Positions 31 to 7,733 of a stretch of DNA of 8,581 nt are shown here, one piece after another. The stretch lies in IMG/VR virus record IMGVR_UViG_2740892423_000012. One strand, 5' to 3'. The notes under the pieces were generated by a model. The model saw nothing but the letters and a program-made list of their open reading frames with translations, did no database searches and had not been told where the DNA came from. Position 1 is the stretch's first letter; each line of letters starts with the position of its first letter. Source of the DNA: a virus (Duplodnaviria; Heunggongvirae; Uroviricota; Caudoviricetes). The translations under genes were made by a program, and so were the position numbers.

Positions 31-208
31 ATGACAAAGTCATCGGGCATTATCTGAACATAAAACACTATCAATAAGTTGGAGTCATTACCCGAAACGC
101 TCCAGAAATAAACGCAAGCCAATCCCAAAAGAATCTGACGTAAAAACCTTCAATTACACAGCTCACCTGTGGGATATCCGGTGGCTAAGATATCGTGCGA
201 GGAAATGA
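31..208 (+). pseudogene. ninE: ninE-like gene, apparently frameshifted (ATG at 31 reads MTKSSGII then stops at 55-57; the NinE-like reading continues in the next frame to the TGA at 206-208)
   Basis: Frame-2 translation 35..208 ends ...[39 protein letters not shown], matching the lambda NinE C-terminus as I remember it. That frame has a stop at 32-34 and no ATG/GTG/TTG after it. The only nearby ATG (31-33, overlapping the upstream stop as ATGA) is in frame 1 and terminates after 8 codons. Confidence 0.5.
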
Positions 209-552
209 CAATGGATTATTCACAGTTAAGTGATTTTGAAATTAACAGAATGGTAGGAGACATAATTTTTAAAGGCCTTTGGGCAAGTAAACCGGAAACA
301 TCAGGGAATAACACCAACAAATGGTATTACGGAAATGCTGATACAACTTTTGAGCCATTAAATCATTTGCCTGATTACTGCAATGATCCGAGCGCTTCAT
401 GGCCGATTATTGAGAAATACAGGATTTCTATCTTAGACCAGTTAACTGAATGGTGTGTGGATGCAAAAGGCGTAAGCCCAATATTTGATACCAGACCTCT
501 CCGCGCCGCCATGATTGTCTTTCTCCTGATGCAGGAGGCCAATAATGCTTAG
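205..552 (+). CDS. nin-region protein of unknown function, possibly NinX/DUF2591-like (115 aa from ATG 205; alternative start ATG 211)
   Basis: Open frame to TAG 550-552. ATG 205 overlaps the ninE stop (ATGA); GAGGAA at 198-203 could serve ATG 211. Position between ninE and ninF matches the P22-type nin order. Family assignment is from memory and uncertain. Confidence 0.6.
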
Positions 553-1258: not shown

Positions 1259-1343
1259 AGTCAGAGATAACAATCAACTAATACTGTTTTGTTGATTTTT
1301 GCTTGTAATTGGCGTTCTGGTCTGATTTTTGTGGAGTAAGTTG

Positions 1344-1727
1344 ATGCGTGATATTCAGATGGTTCTTGAGCGTTGGGGAGCGTGGGCGGCTAATAATCAT
1401 GAAGATGTGACCTGGTCGTCCATTGCCGCCGGTTTTAAGGGATTAATTACTTCAAAAGTAAAATCTCGCCCGCAATGTTGTGACGATGACGCGATGATTA
1501 TTTGCGGGTGCATGGCCCGTCTGAAAAAGAACAACAGCGATTTGCACGATTTATTAGTAGATTATTATGTAGTCGGTATGACATTCATGTCACTGGCAGG
1601 TAAGCATTGCTGCTCTGATGGTTATATCGGGAAAAGGTTACAGAAGGCTGAGGGCATAATTGAAGGGATGTTAATGGCATTAGATATCCGGTTAGAGATG
1701 GATATCGTTGTTAATAACTCTAATTAA
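1344..1727 (+). CDS. quuD: late-gene antiterminator Q (phage 82 / QuuD type), 127 aa
   Basis: ATG 1344 preceded by GGAG at 1333-1336. Translation [26 protein letters not shown]...DIVVNNSN*. The track's TTG start at 1329 is an upstream extension. Confidence 0.9.
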
Positions 1728-1760
1728 TATGCCAATTATTTACTAAAACTTATTAAAAAT

Positions 1761-1778
1761 GGGGCGTTGAGACGCCCC
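1761..1778 (-). terminator. putative rho-independent terminator for leftward (nmpC) transcription
   Basis: 7-bp GC-rich stem GGGGCGT/ACGCCCC with loop TGAG. On the - strand the hairpin is followed by AUUUUUAAUAAG. It lies about 140 nt downstream of the nmpC stop. Confidence 0.45.
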
Positions 1779-1866
1779 CAAAAATAAAGGGTAATATATA
1801 ACAGAAGGTTTATATAGTTAGAAGCAAGGTTGTGCTTCTAAAGGAAGTGGCTTGAGGGAGCCACTT

Positions 1867-1907
1867 ATATGTTGGGGAGGCAACGCCTCCCGCAACATAT
1901 CTTTTTC
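1867..1907 (+). terminator. long imperfect palindrome followed by a T-run; candidate + strand terminator (tR'-like or Q-operon terminator)
   Basis: ATATGTTG-GGGAGGC-AAC-GCCTCCC-GCAACATAT (1867-1900) followed by CTTTTTCG. Two further stem-loops sit just upstream (1819-1840, 1845-1866). Confidence 0.4.
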
Positions 1908-1916
1908 GTAATCAGA

Positions 1917-3014
1917 TTAGAACTGGTAAACCAGACCTACAGCAACGATGTCATCAGTGCTTACACCGAGTGCTTTAGTGAAGTCATTTTTGTCAAGCAG
2001 GTTGATTTTGTAATCAACGAAAGTAGACATATTTTTGTTGAAGTAATAGGTTGCACCTACATCAACATATTTGACTAAGTCCTGATCGCCCCATACTCCA
2101 AGATCCTTACCTTTAGATTGCAGGTAAGCAACGGACGGACGCAGACCGAAATCGAACTGATATTGTGCAACAGCTTCGAAGTTTTGGGCTTTATTAGCAA
2201 CGAAGTGATCAGCAAATACAGTCATATTCTGGGTTTCAGAATAGGTAGTGGCCAGGTAAATGTTGTTAGCGTCATATTTCAGACCTGCGGCCCAAACTTC
2301 TGCATTTTTACCGGAAGCAAATACTTCAGGAAGAACTTTCCCTGCATTAACTTGAGTGTCGGTACGATCAGATTTCGCATAAGTTGCACCGATACCGAAT
2401 CCTTCGTATTCATAGGTAGCAGAGAAACCGAAGCCATCACCGTTACCTTCAGTGTAGTTATCGAAATCGCTACGATCGTTTTTGCCTTGGTACTGAGCAG
2501 CAAAGTTCAGACCATCAACCAGACCAAAGAAGTCGTTGTTACGATAGGTTGCAACACCAGTTGCACGTTGAGTCATGAACACGTCGGTTTGAGTCCAAGT
2601 GTCACCACCGAATTCTGGCAGGACGTCAGTCCACGCACCGATGTCGTATGCTACACCGTAGTTACGGCCGTAATCGATGGAGCCGTAGTCACCGAATTTC
2701 AGGCCAGCGAAGGCAAGACGGGTTTTATCTTTGGAGGAACCTTGAGATTCAGCGCGGTTGCCTTTGAATTCATATTCCCACTGACCGAAACCAGTCAGTT
2801 GATCGTTGATTTGGGTTTCACCTTTGAAGCCAAGACGGGCATAAGTAGTATCACCATCATCTGCATCATTAGAGGAGAAGTAGTGCTTAGCATTAACTTT
2901 CCCGTACAGATCCAGCTTGTTACTGTCTTTATTATAAATTTCAGCTGCCTGAGCAGACATCGCCATCAGTACTGATGCAGCTACAGCAGAAATTGCCACT
3001 GTTAATTTTTTCAT
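1917..3014 (-). CDS. nmpC: outer-membrane general porin, OmpC/OmpF family (NmpC/Lc-like), 365 aa with signal peptide; intact
   Basis: ATG at 3012-3014 (complement) gives [23 protein letters not shown]|AEIYNK... (cleavable signal peptide) and ends ...VGLVYQF* with the C-terminal Phe typical of beta-barrel porins. The ORF track's 385-aa version begins at an upstream in-frame ATG. No interrupting insertion is present. Confidence 0.9.
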
Positions 3015-3441
3015 CGTGAGCCCTTTTTTTGAACTATTATTAAAAAATGATGTCACTGCGCGATAAATATTCATCTAATCAATGTGATTATTTCAAGATG
3101 TAAGTTTTGGTTTCTCGTTTGATTTGTGAAGTAGATCTCTATTTTTATCTGAACTTTTTTCTATCGAATCCTATTCATGGCTCTTGGCTGAATAAAAATA
3201 AATCTATTAGCCAATTTATATTAACGGCTGTTATTTATAAGTGCTCTATAATTTGAAGGTTCAATTTAAATTGGCTAAAAATAACGCTGGAAATTATTTG
3301 TTGGTTATTTGTTGAGATTTGCTTATGTATTTGTAGTGGTGTTTTCAATACTCGGTAGCATTCTCGCAAATATCATTTAGTGGTTTACGTACGTAAAAAA
3401 TTGGTTATGCTGTTAAGAGTGGTTACTTCGTCACACAGCTT

Positions 3442-3474
3442 AAACCCGCCGTCGAGCGGGTTTTTCCATTTTTT
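3442..3474 (+). terminator. strong rho-independent terminator upstream of the lysis genes (tR'-like)
   Basis: 8-bp stem AAACCCGC/GCGGGTTT with loop CGTCGA, followed by TTTTTCCATTTTTT. It lies about 110 nt upstream of the holin start. Confidence 0.6.
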
Positions 3475-3586
3475 GAGTCTCGATATTAGCTGATAACCCA
3501 ATACCTGAGTTATTCACTGACTCCGAGTCTGTTACGTTTCGTAGTATTCCCTCAATTTACACCCGCTTTGTCTGCGAGGTGGGGTT

Positions 3587-3802
3587 ATGAAATCCATGGA
3601 TAAGTTAACAACGGGTGTCGCCTATGGCACCTCAGCAGGTAGTGCCGGGTACTGGTTTTTACAGCTGCTCGATAAAGTCACGCCCTCACAGTGGGCAGCA
3701 ATAGGTGTGCTGGGTAGCCTGGTATTTGGCCTGCTGACGTACCTGACAAACCTTTATTTCAAGATTAAAGAAGATAAGCGCAAGGCTGCGAGAGGTGAAT
3801 AA
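3587..3802 (+). CDS. essD: class II holin of the phage 21 S (pinholin) type with dual-start motif; 71 aa from ATG 3587, 68 aa from ATG 3596
   Basis: Translation [71 protein letters not shown] has two hydrophobic segments and a charged C-terminus. SD GAGGT at 3576-3580. The Met-Lys-Ser-Met start is the classical antiholin/holin pair. Confidence 0.9.
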
Positions 3803-4299
3803 TGCCTCCATCATTACGAAAAGCTGTTGCTGCTGCTATTGGTGGCGGGGCTATTGCTATAGCATCTGTGTTAATCACTGGCCCAAGTGGTAACGATGGT
3901 CTGGAAGGTGTGAGACATAATCCTTACAAAGACATAGTTGGTGTATGGACTGTATGTTACGGGCATACAGGAAAAGACATCATTCCCGGTAAAACGTATA
4001 CCGAAGCAGAGTGCAAAGCCCTCCTGAATAAAGACCTTGCCACTGTCGCCAGACAAATTAACCGGTACATCAAAGTCGATATACCGGAAACAACGCGCGG
4101 CGCTCTTTACTCGTTCGTCTACAACGTGGGTGCTGGCAATTTCAGAACATCGACGCTTCTTCGCAAAATAAACCAGGGTGATATTAAAGGCGCATGTGAT
4201 CAGCTACGGCGCTGGACATACGCTGGCGGTAATCAATGGAAAGGACTGATGACTCGCCGTGAGATTGAGCGTGAAGTCTGTTTGTGGGGGAAACAATGA
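3802..4299 (+). CDS. rrrD: SAR endolysin (T4 E-like lysozyme with N-terminal signal-anchor-release domain), 165 aa
   Basis: ATG overlaps the holin stop (TAATG). The N-terminal Gly/Ala-rich hydrophobic stretch [20 protein letters not shown] is followed by E-x8-D-x5-T catalytic spacing ([16 protein letters not shown]). Ends ...CLWGKQ*. Confidence 0.9.
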
Positions 4300-4754
4300 G
4301 CAGAGTAACCGCGATTATCTCCGCTCTGGTTATCTGCATCATCGTCTGCCTGTCATTGGCTGTTAATCATTACCGTGATAACGCAATCGCCTACAAAGAG
4401 CAGCGCGATAACAAGGCCAGTGAACTGGAGAAGGCGAACGCCACCATCGCTGACATGCGGAAGCGTCAACGTGATGTAGCAGAACTCGACGCAAGATACA
4501 CAAAGGAGCTTGCTGATGCTAACGCGACTATCGAAAGTCTCCGTGCTGATGTTTCTGCTGGGCGTAAGCGCCTGCAAGTCGCCGCCACCTGTGCAAAGTC
4601 AACGACCGGAGCCAGCGGCATGGGCGATGGAGAAAGCCCAGGACTTACAGCAGATGCTGAACTCAATTATTACCGTCTCCGAAGTGGAATCGACAAGATA
4701 ACCGCGCAGGTTAACTACCTGCAGGAATACATCAGGACGCAATGTCTGAAATAA
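4296..4754 (+). CDS. rzpD: Rz i-spanin (inner-membrane spanin subunit), 152 aa
   Basis: ATG 4296 overlaps the endolysin stop (ATGA). N-terminal [21 protein letters not shown] followed by a charged helical periplasmic domain. The track's start at 4284 is an upstream extension. Confidence 0.85.
4516..4701 (+). CDS. rzoD: Rz1 o-spanin (outer-membrane lipoprotein), embedded in the +1 frame of Rz, 61 aa
   Basis: AAGGAG at 4503-4508 sits 7 nt before ATG 4516. Translation [20 protein letters not shown]|[16 protein letters not shown]... has a lipobox Cys and a Pro-rich mature region. It lies wholly inside Rz. Confidence 0.8.
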
Positions 4755-4958: not shown

Positions 4959-5480
4959 ATGAATATCGTGCCACTTAATTACAAAGGTGAAATTGTCAGT
5001 TTCAACACTGATGGTTGGATCAACGTCACAGGTGTTGCTGAGAGATTTGGGAAACGCATTGATAACTGGATGCGTTTGGCAGAAACGCTTGAATACGTTC
5101 GTGCTTTAGACGAAGCGTTGACCGGGAAAGAATCTCAAATTTTACATCCCTCACAATCGAGGTATGTAAAAACCAGCAAGGCACGAAAGGACAGGGGTGG
5201 TGGTACGTGGCTACATCCAAAACTTTCAGTTGCATTTGCCCGTTGGTGTGATGCTCGTTTTGCTGTGTGGTGCGATCTGCACATTGATAGTCTGCTTCGC
5301 GGTGAACTGACTGAGCAGCAGAAATATGAGCAAGCATGTCGCATTCGCGATGACCGGAAATCAAAAGCCAGCAATGGGGCAAGAGAGATGGCTCGCTGGC
5401 GATGGGATAAGCCGGTTATTGAAGCAAATGTTGAGTACTGGCGCGAGCAACTGCAGTTGACTCTCGATATCGCGTGCTGA
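4959..5480 (+). CDS. KilA-N domain protein, 173 aa
   Basis: ATG 4959 with a weak SD (AGGT, 7-nt spacing). The segment GGTWLHPKLSVAFARWCDARFAVWCDLHIDSLL matches the conserved core of the KilA-N DNA-binding domain as remembered. The C-terminal third is charged and helical. Confidence 0.7.
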   Translation: MNIVPLNYKGEIVSFNTDGWINVTGVAERFGKRIDNWMRLAETLEYVRALDEALTGKESQILHPSQSRYVKTSKARKDRGGGTWLHPKLSVAFARWCDARFAVWCDLHIDSLLRGELTEQQKYEQACRIRDDRKSKASNGAREMARWRWDKPVIEANVEYWREQLQLTLDIAC

Positions 5481-5949: not shown

Positions 5950-5968
5950 GGTCTATGTGGGAATTGAA

Positions 5969-6247
5969 ATGATTGTCGGCCTGATTGCTGCCTTGCTGGC
6001 AGTAATAGCCGGTGCTTTTGGTCTGGGTAAATCTCGCGGTGCAAGTATCGCTGAGACAAAAGCGAACCAGCAACGCACTAAAGAACGTGCAACTGCTACT
6101 GAAGTCGTTGCAATACGCCGGGTAGAAACAACAAAAGGAGCCTGGGATGTACAGCAGATTGTTAATCATCTTCCTGATGGCGATGTTGACCGTGAGTTGC
6201 GCGAAAGATTTACCCGAAAAAACTGCAGTAACAGACACGGCTTGTGA
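5969..6247 (+). CDS. i-spanin-like protein (N-terminal TMD plus charged helical domain), 92 aa
   Basis: ATG 5969 lies 20 nt after the endolysin-remnant stop. Translation MIVGLIAALLAVIAGAFGLGKSRGASIAETKANQQRTKERATATEVVAIRR.... The 166-aa track ORF from 5747 is an upstream extension through the endolysin remnant in another frame. Confidence 0.5.
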   Translation: MIVGLIAALLAVIAGAFGLGKSRGASIAETKANQQRTKERATATEVVAIRRVETTKGAWDVQQIVNHLPDGDVDRELRERFTRKNCSNRHGL

Positions 6248-6362
6248 CTGGGTGAACATCATCTACCTCACTGAGCACGATATTACCGTGCAGGATAAGC
6301 AGACGAAGCGGGACATATTGGCGCATAACAAATCAGTGCAGGCTAACTGTAGAATGTATTGA
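6147..6362 (+). CDS. o-spanin-like outer-membrane lipoprotein, overlapping the 3' end of the previous gene in the +1 frame and extending beyond it, 71 aa
   Basis: Strong SD AAGGAG at 6135-6140, 6 nt before the ATG. Signal peptide with lipobox MYSRLLIIFLMAMLTVSC; the mature part contains two further Cys residues. The overlapped (P2 LysB/LysC-like) architecture is typical of spanins. Confidence 0.55.
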   Translation: MYSRLLIIFLMAMLTVSCAKDLPEKTAVTDTACDWVNIIYLTEHDITVQDKQTKRDILAHNKSVQANCRMY

Positions 6363-6536: not shown

Positions 6537-6561
6537 GCACATTTAGAAATTGAGTAAATGG

Positions 6562-6599
6562 CACATATAGTGTTTTCAGTGTTAAAAAAACACTATATG
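6562..6599. promoter_or_regulatory. perfect 14-bp inverted repeat (operator-like) with overlapping -10-like hexamer
   Basis: ACATATAGTGTTTT (6562-6575), 10-bp spacer, AAAACACTATATGT (6586-6599). TATAGT at 6566-6571 lies inside the left arm. The repeat sits 26 nt upstream of the 66-aa ORF start. Confidence 0.45.
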
Positions 6600-6624
6600 T
6601 AGCACTACAATAGGAGATTCCACT

Positions 6625-6825
6625 ATGAGCCCGGCTGAGTTCTACGATTTCTATGGCATTAAACCTGCAGAGATGATGACTGGAGAAACTGTTAACAACT
6701 TTGCTTCCAGGGTACTTGCTCAACAAACGAGTACGAGTGGTAGTACCGGCGTTTGGTACTCTCAAGGTACTGCAGCGCAGGCTAAGCAAAATCAAAGTAC
6801 ACATCATCAACTTTACACCTACTAA
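6625..6825 (+). CDS. small hypothetical protein (66 aa), first gene of a two-gene operon
   Basis: Good SD AGGAG at 6611-6615, 9 nt before ATG 6625. Translation MSPAEFYDFYGIKPAEMMTGETVNNFASRVLAQQTSTSGSTGVWYSQGTAAQAKQNQSTHHQLYTY. The stop is 5 nt before the next ATG. No family recognised. Confidence 0.55.
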   Translation: MSPAEFYDFYGIKPAEMMTGETVNNFASRVLAQQTSTSGSTGVWYSQGTAAQAKQNQSTHHQLYTY

Positions 6826-6830
6826 ACACC

Positions 6831-7733
6831 ATGCCTAATTGGAGTGACGTACTGGGCGAGATGACGGCTCTCGCCCAGAAGAGTCCGATGGATGAGGTTC
6901 GCCGTAAATATTTATTACAACTGTCTAATCACACTGGAAGAAATGTAATTACATATTATTCCGGATGGTTGCAACATGGTGGTGCAGAAGTCCGACATCT
7001 CACCCTGATGACAGATGATGATAAAAATGGATTAATGACTGTTATTAATGGTTTAGATGTTACAAAGGGGGTGGATTTAATATTACATACCCCTGGAGGT
7101 GATATCGCTGCCTTAGAGTCTATTGGTCATTATCTGCGTTCTAAGTTTGGGACTGATATCAGAGCTATCGTTCCTATGATTTCAATGTCATGTGGTACCA
7201 TGCTTGCGTGCTGTGCTAATGAAATCATAATGGGTAAACAGTCCAATATTGGCCCGATTGACCCTCAGTTTAATGGATTTTCTACACATGCTATTATTGA
7301 GGAATGGAATAGAGCTCAGGCGGAAATTTTTAACAATCCAGCAGCTGTGCAAATGTGGCAGTTTATACTTCAGAAACTCAACCCCACTATTATCGGAGAG
7401 TGTGAAAAAGCTATCCAATGGGCGAATGAGATTGTCAAGCACTGGCTTATGACGGGTATGTTTGCAAATGATCCGGAGTCAGAAACAAAAGCAACTCATG
7501 TATGCTCAGAGCTGAACAATCATCATACAACTTACACTCATTCGAGACATATCCATTTCGATAAAGCTCAGAAAATTGGATTGAATGTTACAGAACTGGA
7601 AAGTGATCAAGTCCTCCAGGATTTGGTTTTGACCATACATCACAGTTACATGCACTCGTTTGGTGGAGCCCCGATCGCAAAGATCATAGAAAACCATAAT
7701 GGGAATGCTATGATTTGGAATATGCAATCGTAA
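6831..7733 (+). CDS. ClpP/SppA-fold serine peptidase (S49 / SDH 'serine dehydrogenase proteinase'-like), 300 aa
   Basis: LILHTPGGD motif (compare ClpP/SppA ...SPGG) followed by ISMSCGTMLA with a candidate nucleophile Ser. The gene is visibly AT-rich relative to its neighbours. There is no SD before ATG 6831 (suggesting coupling to the upstream ORF); alternative in-frame starts exist at 6861 and 6888. Confidence 0.75.
   Translation: MPNWSDVLGEMTALAQKSPMDEVRRKYLLQLSNHTGRNVITYYSGWLQHGGAEVRHLTLMTDDDKNGLMTVINGLDVTKGVDLILHTPGGDIAALESIGHYLRSKFGTDIRAIVPMISMSCGTMLACCANEIIMGKQSNIGPIDPQFNGFSTHAIIEEWNRAQAEIFNNPAAVQMWQFILQKLNPTIIGECEKAIQWANEIVKHWLMTGMFANDPESETKATHVCSELNNHHTTYTHSRHIHFDKAQKIGLNVTELESDQVLQDLVLTIHHSYMHSFGGAPIAKIIENHNGNAMIWNMQS

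Follow-up and report, generated by a model that had tools for sequence, protein, structure and literature searches.

An antisense porin unit with an ipeX-type 3' UTR between the Q gene and the probable late promoter of a DLP12-type lambdoid phage

The porin segment of the stretch of phage DNA analysed here (8,581 nucleotides of the Caudoviricetes record IMGVR_UViG_2740892423_000012; hereafter the window) is very probably best explained as a cargo porin unit seated in the slot between the antiterminator gene Q and the late promoter pR', with late transcription starting downstream of the cargo. The late promoter is most likely situated between the porin and holin genes and not beside Q, because positions 3383-3465 are homologous to the pR'-qut-terminator block of phage 933W and the Q protein of the window is 78% identical to that of 933W; late transcription would therefore have no need to run backwards through the porin gene. 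Judged by sequence similarity, the region is the known and already described quuD-nmpC(lc)-essD segment of DLP12/qsr'-type lambdoid phages and prophages. The anatomy, the identities and homologies, the fold stabilities and the conservation given below come from the present analysis. The central gene is an intact ORF for a 365-aa general porin (1917-3014, minus strand), flanked by Q and the lysis cassette and oriented against both, and here the full-length Pfam match and the flanking gene calls uphold what the earlier note had read from the sequence. The features concerned are the following.

1344-1727, plus strand: Q antiterminator gene of the QuuD type, 127 aa (PF06530, E 4e-53; the mechanically called ORF starts at TTG 1329)
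1753-1916, minus strand: 3' UTR of the porin transcript, the ipeX region, with five hairpins and an intrinsic terminator at its end
1755-1778, minus strand: intrinsic terminator of the porin/ipeX transcript (stem 1761-1778, U-tract 1760-1755)
1795-1816, minus strand: hairpin 4, with a 7-bp stem of A and U only, the weakest of the five
1818-1841, minus strand: hairpin 3, with a 9-bp stem (inverted repeat and fold)
1845-1866, minus strand: hairpin 2, with an 8-bp stem (inverted repeat and fold)
1867-1906, both strands: hairpin 1, with a composite, bulged 15-bp stem (stem 1867-1900, inner stem 1875-1891)
1917-3014, minus strand: porin gene nmpC/lc (Pfam, exact-sequence records and PDB alignment; stop codon 1917-1919)
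3015-3382, minus strand: AT-rich region upstream of the porin gene, 28-29% GC
3384-3411, plus strand: candidate pR' (-35 TTTACG at 3384-3389, 16-nt spacer, -10 TATGCT at 3406-3411)
3414-3441, plus strand: conserved initial transcribed region of pR', TAAGAGTGGTTAC..., covering the 'qut' position of 933W
3442-3470, plus strand: candidate terminator tR', an 8-bp G+C stem (3442-3463 in the terminator scan) followed by TTTTTCCATTTTTT
3587-4754, plus strand: late lysis cassette of the phage-21 type (PF04971, PF00959, PF03245)
3587 or 3596 to 3802, plus strand: holin/antiholin S
3802-4299, plus strand: SAR endolysin (lysozyme)
to 4754, plus strand: Rz, with Rz1 embedded at 4510-4701

The exact 127-aa Q sequence is found on at least 1000 contigs as QuuD or REQ1_ECOLI, shows weak similarity to Q21 (E 7e-7), and closes a series of genes upstream of the junction (ninX, rusA, ylcG and Q) that all lie on the plus strand. 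The lysis genes are of the phage-21 type, but the Q/pR' pair appears to be of the 933W/DLP12 type. Over positions 1300-3620 the window is 99.6% identical to phage 434B (a DLP12 segment with IS5 in the porin gene), whose annotation agrees with the lysis cassette calls, 99.1% identical to mEp332, and 99.7-99.8% identical to the quuD/porin/essD regions of many E. coli; at least 80% of this stretch is present in 2398 of 5426 complete E. coli genomes. The cryptic K-12 prophage DLP12 (qsr'), in its quuD-ipeX-nmpC-essD/rrrD/rzpD segment, has the gene order and orientations of the window, with the porin in the position of b0553, and the identities are 99.7% for Q, 98.9% for the junction, 100% for the pR'-terminator block and 99.1% for the holin. 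The two differ in that nmpC is split by IS5 after codon 346 in K-12, as in 434B, but is intact in the window, and in that Rz is followed by borD/ybcV/ybcW in K-12 but by a KilA-N gene, a second spanin pair and an SDH protease in the window.

The porin ORF taken from 3074 (1917-3074, minus strand, 385 aa) matches the Pfam family Porin_1 (PF00267) over the entire profile (1-337 of 337, E 5.6e-157). The start is almost certainly ATG 3014 rather than 3074, because a GGG-containing ribosome-binding site lies upstream of the former, whereas 3074 is without one. The protein has a 23-aa signal peptide followed by AEIYNK and a C-terminus reading GLVYQF, the final residue being aromatic; the alignments of the mature OmpC, OmpF and PhoE chains of the PDB begin at residue 24, and OmpC, OmpK36, PhoE and OmpF structures were recovered with E values from 1e-137 to 1e-109 (about 1e-137 for OmpC and OmpK36). 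The identical 365-aa sequence, named 'outer membrane porin protein LC' or 'NmpC', occurs on at least 1000 contigs; both halves of the IS5-split K-12 nmpC are 98% identical to it, and the best 80 relatives from viral contigs are all 99-100% identical. Amino-acid differences between relatives are grouped in a few short patches and not spread at random. Chromosomal porins of the OmpD/OmpC family in Salmonella, Citrobacter and Enterobacter share the fold family and are 73-78% identical to the window porin, but their genes lie outside prophages and, in a genome scan, were without an ipeX-like 3' UTR or a similar upstream region. The porin's own promoter must sit in the AT-rich region at 3015-3382, in which a consensus promoter scan found no porin promoter and which displays no homology to the upstream regions of the chromosomal OmpD-type genes. 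A likeness of positions 3111-3092 on the minus strand to an OmpR box was set aside.

The pR' candidate, whose -35 is overlapped by the palindrome TTTACGTACGTAAA, corresponds column by column to the pR' annotated in 933W and VT1-Sakai, and the stretch 3383-3472 is 99-100% conserved in relatives whose flanks drop to 85-90%. Its initial transcribed region is invariant in the window, 933W, SfII and PhiR40_1, and the core TAAGAGTGGTTAC is found once in the window, at 3414-3426. A transcription start near 3418 is suggested by differential RNA-seq of the Stx phages of strain Sakai, taken together with the annotated feature coordinates of 933W and VT1-Sakai; in the Sakai phages the pR' start was placed 258 nt before the 3' end of tR', which fits the annotated promoter. 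The homologue of the candidate tR' in 933W is the first terminator annotated downstream of pR'. However, since the mapped 3' end of the Sakai pR' transcript is the second terminator and not the hairpin homologous to 3442-3463, we can only infer how efficiently the latter acts as tR'. The block made up of the pR' core and the terminator (3384-3470) is situated 117 bp upstream of the holin gene. The hexamers of the candidate match the consensus at 8 of 12 positions, the consensus promoter scan did not flag pR', and the pR' of 933W is itself annotated as 'putative'. The phage-21 Q binding element, TGAGCA-N2-TGAGCA, has no match with two or fewer mismatches anywhere in the window; a Q system of the phage-21 type was rejected, there being no TGAGCA repeat beyond chance and the Q protein being distant from Q21.

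The window thus departs from the canonical layout in which pR' adjoins Q: Q ends at 1727, the -35 of pR' begins at 3384, and the porin unit lies between them, a displaced layout that is also found in K-12 DLP12, PhiR40_1 and SfII. Homology of Q with 933W and PhiR40_1 stops at ...LEMD and begins again precisely with the -35 of pR', the pattern that marks an insertion separating Q from its promoter. In PhiR40_1, whose Q is 85% identical and has the same ...LEMD breakpoint, minus-strand cargo other than the porin lies directly upstream of the pR' core, and SfII, too, carries other minus-strand cargo directly upstream of the same core. The slot between the end of Q and pR' has, by these comparisons, been used repeatedly. 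The lysis operon of DLP12 is reported to be under a phage Q-type antiterminator, the regulatory region having been cloned from directly upstream of essD.

The convergent junction between Q and the porin gene (1728-1916) is 189 bp long and contains five inverted repeats that fold into stable hairpins, in agreement with the earlier note, which had described about 190 bp with four or five stem-loops. Folded as porin-sense RNA it reaches -64.1 kcal/mol, where shuffled sequences average -33.8 (z = -8.4) and none of 200 does as well, and as plus-strand RNA -63.8 kcal/mol (z = -6.1); the structure is far above chance level. The note's further claim of one terminator for each direction also stands at the level of sequence, as the two outermost hairpins are terminator-like structures that face in opposite directions. 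The terminator of the porin transcript consists, according to the terminator scan, of GGGGCGTCTCAACGCCCC followed by ATTTTTAATA, with a fold of -13.9 kcal/mol, and its stem is unchanged in 21 distinct sequences, in which substitutions are confined to the loop. Hairpin 1 is, on the minus strand, the 5'-proximal hairpin of the porin 3' UTR; on the plus strand its fold of -21.3 kcal/mol (z = -5.7) is followed by CUUUUUCG, the T-run at 1902-1906 giving a terminator-like end for transcripts leaving Q that lies 9-11 nt before the porin stop codon.

Substitutions are depleted in the stems: 12 of 92 columns vary there, compared with 16 of 48 among the unpaired columns (Fisher p = 0.007). A single stem polymorphism of the junction is common, an A-to-G change in hairpin 3, present in 9 of the 21 distinct sequences, which gives a G-U pair on the porin-sense RNA and an A-C mismatch on the other strand. 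Two singleton substitutions in hairpin 4 disrupt porin-sense pairing, three singleton changes in the junction favour the plus strand, and hairpin 1 shows one compensatory change, from C:G to U:A, in E. albertii. The covariation score, with one compensatory pair, was matched by 39 of 500 shuffles (21 distinct sequences, about 97% column identity), so that covariation lends the hairpins weak support, the sequences being too nearly identical; a further 120 loci from viral contigs, giving 52 distinct variants, were again near-identical. A REP-like or otherwise repeated element was rejected, as the hairpins are not copies of one another and the junction occurs 1-3 times per genome.

On the porin strand this junction is, on the evidence of position, length and similarity, the known ipeX 3' UTR of nmpC/lc. 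It is located between the porin stop codon and a rho-independent terminator, and the stop codon and the end of the U-tract are about 165-167 nt apart, which may be compared with the 167 nt reported for ipeX. Published work places ipeX in the 3' part of the nmpC/lc porin transcript, describes it as lowering OmpC and OmpF, and reports that ipeX expressed alone from a plasmid has this effect in the case of the near-identical K-12 sequence; the lowering of OmpC and OmpF is accordingly adopted here from the literature. The junction of the window and the nmpC-quuD junction of K-12 DLP12 are identical at 187 of 189 bases, both differences lying beyond the terminator. In phages whose porin coding sequence is 85-88% identical the junction is 94-97% identical, and in an E. 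albertii prophage remnant the porin, UTR and terminator are kept as one unit, with homology stopping right after the terminator. Of 5426 complete E. coli genomes, 2510 (46%) contain the junction, a number close to the 2398 that carry the Q-porin-S module, and it is annotated in none of them. A search of Rfam at a permissive threshold returned no ipeX or StxS family and two spurious miRNA matches to long hairpins elsewhere.

These observations can be assembled into a model in which the porin gene, preceded by an AT-rich promoter region and followed by a structured 3' UTR with a terminator, makes up a self-contained minus-strand cargo of about 1.67 kb (approximately 1710-3380). Transcription of the porin in the lysogen would start from a promoter of its own and end at the terminator 1778-1755, leaving about 25 nt to the Q stop codon. 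The ipeX 3' UTR, whose activity is known from published work, would lower host OmpC and OmpF, and the lysogen might thereby swap its outer-membrane porins. Q would act in trans at pR' (about 3384-3411, with a start near 3418) and carry RNA polymerase past the terminator at 3442-3470 into the holin, endolysin and spanin genes; such Q-dependent read-through has been reported for the DLP12 lysis operon. Q-dependent late transcription would thus start downstream of the porin and never have to cross it, and unmodified Q and porin transcripts would each stop just before the opposite gene, overlapping only in the hairpin cluster of about 150 nt. Precisely where the promoters and the transcription start lie, and what each individual hairpin does, is inferred in this model. 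The suggestion of the earlier note that the porin is a lysogenic-conversion cargo draws support from the ipeX literature and from a prophage gene of LF82 annotated as NmpC, linked to the window porin by name, which was reported to be expressed 10-fold above the local prophage background in the lysogen; in NRG 857C, a relative of LF82, the junction is found at 93.6% identity.

A late promoter adjoining Q, as in lambda, 21, 82 and 933W, would instead send Q-modified polymerase through the hairpins and the porin gene in antisense, silencing the porin on induction. This was the main thrust of the earlier note, which held that Q-dependent late transcription must cross 1.1 kb of the porin and shut it off, and offered a late promoter downstream of the porin as an alternative in parentheses. 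The canonical cassette indeed has pR' directly after Q, and as Q-modified polymerase ignores terminators a read-through of 1.7 kb is mechanically possible. Yet nothing like the 933W-type pR' core occurs in 1728-1916, its sole copy in the window being downstream of the porin; the promoter scan finds no promoter-like site in the junction; and both the divergence of the flanks around the conserved pR'/qut/terminator block and the insertion signature at ...LEMD argue against it. The obligatory crossing and the antisense shut-off by the late operon are thus not borne out, the homology at 3384-3470 favours the parenthetical alternative, and a promoter beside Q is scarcely credible. Little better can be said of the view that the porin gene, like that of K-12, is a relic that is no longer expressed and plays no part in the element. 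The IS5 insertions in K-12 and 434B and an upstream GC content typical of silenced foreign DNA speak for such decay, but the window ORF is uninterrupted and encodes a signal peptide, its Pfam match spans the whole profile, the identical protein recurs on at least 1000 contigs, differences among relatives are clustered rather than random, and the gene annotated as NmpC is expressed in LF82 lysogens, all of which make a relic very unlikely.

The hairpin cluster, for its part, might be a mere stack of terminators insulating convergent genes, devoid of any trans-acting role. Its two outer hairpins are terminator-like in opposite directions, the covariation falls short of demonstrating a functional RNA structure and no Rfam family matches; but three internal hairpins that termination does not need are conserved above the adjacent coding sequence across 2510 genomes, and published work assigns repression of OmpC and OmpF to the ipeX RNA, so that pure insulation is improbable. 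A bolder and rather doubtful proposal makes the cluster a two-way antisense switch between the Q and porin/ipeX RNAs that couples lysis-lysogeny to the porin set. Given the opposed terminators, the two transcripts would share about 150 nt of full complementarity (1755-1906). In lysogens, porin RNA that bears ipeX, or read-through of its terminator, would base-pair with stray transcripts of Q and keep Q low; upon induction, abundant early Q transcripts would titrate ipeX and the porin mRNA or bring about their destruction, and so release OmpC and OmpF. Antisense traffic from the early operon is a tentative possibility that would add to the cargo model and not replace it: N-antiterminated pR transcripts might pass the terminator at 1867-1906 and cross ipeX and the porin in lytic growth. 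In lambda, N-modified rightward transcription continues past Q; in the window ninX, rusA, ylcG and Q are all on the plus strand, with no need for an intervening promoter, and the plus-strand terminator is merely 9-11 nt ahead of the porin stop codon. Against this, the N/nut system of the phage lies outside the window, and the strong hairpin (-21.3 kcal/mol) with its U-tract would stop any unmodified polymerase. That collision or RNA duplex formation would then dampen the porin and ipeX is possible in the same tentative degree.

The cargo model places the window among several known systems. OmpC is the receptor of phage PA-2. The lc porin of that phage, with its ipeX 3' UTR, is connected to the window porin by the shared source name 'outer membrane porin protein LC' and by the literature, which has Lc appearing and OmpC falling upon PA-2 lysogenic conversion and describes PA-2 IpeX as lowering OmpC and OmpF. 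The Q-pR'-qut-tR' cassette of the Stx phages 933W and VT1-Sakai, the source of the small RNA StxS, aligns with the window in its promoter, initial transcribed region and first terminator; according to published work its pR' fires constitutively, with early termination in lysogens. However, pR' overlaps the end of Q in these phages and is 1.66 kb from it in the window, and the 258-nt StxS precursor region has no counterpart in the window beyond the first hairpin. Their cargo (tRNAs, stx), moreover, is in sense, downstream of pR' and expressed late, whereas that of the window is antisense, upstream of pR' and insulated. The unit is also reminiscent of lambdoid 'morons' such as lambda bor and lom, which have their own promoter and terminator and are expressed from the prophage: it is likewise self-contained, has a terminator of its own and AT-rich DNA upstream, and is presumably expressed in lysogens, and other phages carry different cargo in the same slot. 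It differs from them in that its 3' UTR, according to the ipeX literature, itself regulates host genes.

Thus, in conclusion, phages of the DLP12 type appear to define an arrangement in which cargo separates the late promoter from Q. Antisense cargo upstream of pR' would be expressed in lysogeny and insulated from late transcription, whereas cargo downstream of it, like stx, becomes a late gene. The junction itself is widespread, in 46% of complete E. coli genomes, yet unannotated in their RefSeq records. Were the antisense switch real, it would tie the set of outer-membrane porins to the lysis-lysogeny state, and antisense cargo expressed in lysogeny would have a preferred site in the slot between Q and pR'. 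For the host, a prophage porin combined with an RNA that reduces the host's own porins would amount to lysogenic conversion of the textbook type, altering the permeability of the outer membrane and the receptors that it offers to other phages.

Gene calls and profile matches identify the 8.6-kb window as the right end of a lambdoid (pro)phage, with a porin gene lodged between its late regulator and its lysis cassette.

Principal features of the window
169-552: ninX
759-1121: rusA
1118-1258: ylcG
1344-1727, plus strand: Q antiterminator gene (PF06530)
1761-1778, 1795-1816, 1818-1841, 1845-1866 and 1867-1900: five hairpins of the Q-porin junction
1917-3074, minus strand: porin ORF, between Q and holin and opposite in strand to its neighbors
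3384-3389: candidate pR' -35, TTTACG, by alignment to 933W and VT1-Sakai
3406-3411: candidate pR' -10, TATGCT, by the same alignment
after the -10: strongly conserved initial transcribed region, TAAGAGTGGTTAC...
3442-3463: hairpin with T-run, after the initial transcribed region
3587-3802: phage-21-type holin
3802-4299: SAR lysozyme
4284-4754: Rz, with Rz1 embedded at 4510-4701
8097 onward, after further cargo: lambda-like cos region and start of nu1

The porin ORF matches the Pfam porin profile from end to end (E 5.6e-157), in agreement with the earlier note, which had called an intact porin gene on the opposite strand between Q and the lysis genes. Its true start is almost certainly the ATG at 3014, which yields a protein of 365 aa whose first 23 residues form a signal peptide; the mature OmpC, OmpF and PhoE chains align to it from residue 24. 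At least 1000 contigs carry the identical 365-aa protein, where it is called 'porin protein LC' and 'NmpC'. When the gene (1917-3014, minus strand) is compared with its variants in four related phage records (L166, L169, L170 and L087), the amino-acid differences fall in about five short patches beyond residue 148 (about 149-151, 182-190, 219-232, 268-272 and 340-352), while residues 1-148 are almost invariant, with one substitution each in two relatives. At the sequence level this pattern is consistent with surface-loop variation. The porin's own promoter, expected inside 3015-3382 (28-29% GC), was not located in that interval. Between the porin and pR', the divergent AT-rich DNA contains an exact 10-nt direct repeat, TTATTTGTTG, in two copies with 11-nt spacing (3294-3314), and a 16-nt inverted repeat, TTAGCCAATTTATATT / AATTTAAATTGGCTAA, 94% complementary (3207-3278), both of which may be regulator sites.

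The stretch 1300-3620 is 99.6% identical to phage 434B, 99.1% to phage mEp332 and 99.7-99.8% to quuD-porin-essD regions of many E. coli, and at least 80% of it is present in 2398 of 5426 complete E. coli genomes. The DLP12 cryptic prophage of E. coli K-12 has the same arrangement, namely quuD (plus), nmpC (minus, split by IS5) and essD (plus), and 187 of the 189 junction bases are identical to K-12, both mismatches lying beyond the terminator. Published accounts know precisely this stretch as ipeX, a 167-nt DLP12-borne RNA that is transcribed from the phage porin promoter within the porin transcript, then processed out, and that acts as a repressor of OmpC and OmpF, two porins of the host; phage PA-2 is likewise reported to carry it. 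In the window, 165-167 nt separate the porin stop codon from the end of the terminator U-tract. Reportedly, ipeX was localized to the untranslated stretch from the nmpC stop to its rho-independent terminator, and the PA-2 lc gene is said to have it in identical form. The junction and porin are the already known nmpC/lc-ipeX cargo of DLP12/PA-2-type phages, and the proposal that the porin serves lysogenic conversion is reasonable. Chromosomal OmpD-type porins, with 73-78% protein identity to the window porin, differ in having no ipeX-like 3' UTR. The annotators of 434B label its matching stretch as non-434 DNA with IS5 in the porin: in the sequenced stock (L001, OL657227; 2437-6028) the K-12 DLP12 Q-nmpC::IS5-S segment replaces the phage's own late regulatory region, making this stock, per the annotators, a product of laboratory recombination with the cryptic prophage.

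The junction itself (1728-1916, 189 bp) folds as porin-sense RNA at -64.1 kcal/mol versus -33.8 for shuffles (z = -8.4), and as plus-strand RNA with z = -6.1; its five hairpins bear out the four or five stem-loops suggested earlier. On the minus strand a U-tract (ATTTTTAATA) follows only the last hairpin, 1778-1761, which is the porin/ipeX terminator. On the plus strand only the hairpin at 1867-1900 (-21.3 kcal/mol) has a T-run behind it (1902-1906), forming a terminator-like end for transcripts leaving Q. The sequence bears out the idea of one terminator per direction. As each terminator adjoins the stop codon of the other gene, the terminated transcripts would overlap at ~1755-1906 without entering the other coding sequence. 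Across 21 distinct junction sequences the stems are paired in 99.1% of cells and variable columns are rarer in stems (12/92) than in unpaired positions (16/48; p = 0.007). Variation is sparse, though: a single compensatory C:G to U:A change is present, and the observed score is reached by 39 of 500 shuffles. The sole common stem polymorphism, an A to G change in 9 of the 21, leaves a pair (G-U) on the porin-sense strand alone; the opposite strand is favored by three singleton changes. The junction is 94-97% identical even in phages whose porin CDS is just 85-88% identical, and 2510 of 5426 complete E. coli genomes contain it, with 1-3 copies each and no annotated feature beneath it among the matches listed. 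In an E. albertii prophage remnant the porin, UTR and terminator are kept as one unit beside chromosomal genes, and homology stops directly after the terminator.

The principal inference of the earlier note, that late transcription must read antisense through the porin and shut it off, is not supported by the predicted position of the late promoter, which favors the alternative offered there in parentheses. A sensitive DNA search with 3230-3590 matched 3383-3465 to a short stretch of DNA that hundreds of Stx phages share, annotated in 933W and VT1-Sakai as pR' (overlapping the Q end), qut and a rho-independent terminator. The pR' core motif is present once in the window, and the block 3383-3472 is conserved at 99-100% in relatives whose flanks drop to 85-90%. 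The window Q is 78% identical to Q933W and only distantly related to Q21, whose binding repeat is absent from the window. Published work on the DLP12 S-R-Rz operon describes control by a phage Q-type antiterminator, using a regulatory fragment from directly upstream of essD. The late promoter is thus predicted to lie between porin and holin; Q would act in trans at pR', and Q-dependent late transcription would avoid the porin. Putative antisense transcription of the porin could still come from N-antiterminated early transcripts running through Q.

In strain Sakai dRNA-seq mapped a distance of 258 nt from the pR' start to the 3' end of tR'; combined with the 933W and VT1-Sakai feature coordinates, this would have transcription begin 7 nt past the annotated -10, which corresponds to ~3418 in the window. 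Since the mapped 3' end of the short Sakai pR' RNA is at a second terminator, which is missing from the window, the efficiency of 3442-3470 as tR' is something we can only infer. The short transcript from pR' to terminator (3418-3470, plus) would be the DLP12-type equivalent of the 5' portion of the pR' RNA in Stx phages, the source of the StxS small RNA. The window has nothing equivalent to the 3' portion that produces StxS and extends to the second terminator. A palindrome, TTTACGTACGTAAA (3384-3397), overlaps the -35; its 933W counterpart, TTTACGATCGTAAA, differs at the center and remains palindromic. Within the spacer, three of four phages share CGTAAAAA, and SfII has CGCAAAAA. The palindrome and this spacer element are a candidate site for binding by Q proteins of the 933W/DLP12 type.

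Elsewhere in the window, a hairpin with T-run (atcaac...gttgat tttt; 1272-1300, plus) between ylcG and Q, close ahead of Q, was seen by eye and is absent from the terminator-scan output; its position is like that of the lambda terminators making Q expression N-dependent. Inside Q an antisense promoter-like site (GTGACA-18-CATAAT; 1593-1564, minus; 10/12 consensus matches) has a placement resembling that of lambda paQ, with no CII-type repeat evident at the site. A KilA-N/Rha-like regulator gene (4959-5480, plus; PF04383, phrog_129) occupies the place of borD/ybcV in K-12 DLP12. It separates the lysis cassette from a second, overlapping spanin-like pair, an Rz-like i-spanin (5957-6247, plus; phrog_1026, E 2e-27) and an Rz-like o-spanin/lipoprotein (6147-6362, plus; phrog_1275, E 1.5e-27), with the canonical Rz/Rz1 lying ~1.2 kb upstream of it; it is unusual for a single late region to have two spanin systems. 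A long near-perfect hairpin (6550-6618, plus), which caused a spurious mir-223 Rfam match, precedes a 66-aa ORF (6625-6825, plus; phrog_25714) and a 300-aa ClpP-like SDH serine protease (6831-7733, plus; PF01972, phrog_11747). Together, 6550-7733 looks like another cargo unit directly before cos.

Homology of the window Q with 933W and with PhiR40_1 (85% identical) ends at the same point, ...LEMD, and restarts at the pR' -35; therefore ~1.67 kb (roughly 1710-3380) looks like DNA inserted between Q and the Q promoter. In PhiR40_1 and SfII this slot is filled by unrelated minus-strand genes (phrog_3152, phrog_9879), which sit just upstream of that same pR' core. The cargo of Stx phages lies on the other side of pR', downstream and in sense orientation, and is expressed late. 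Cargo that is antisense and upstream of pR' is positioned for expression in lysogeny, and consistent with this, a prophage gene of strain LF82 annotated NmpC, linked to the window porin by name, is expressed 10-fold above the prophage background.
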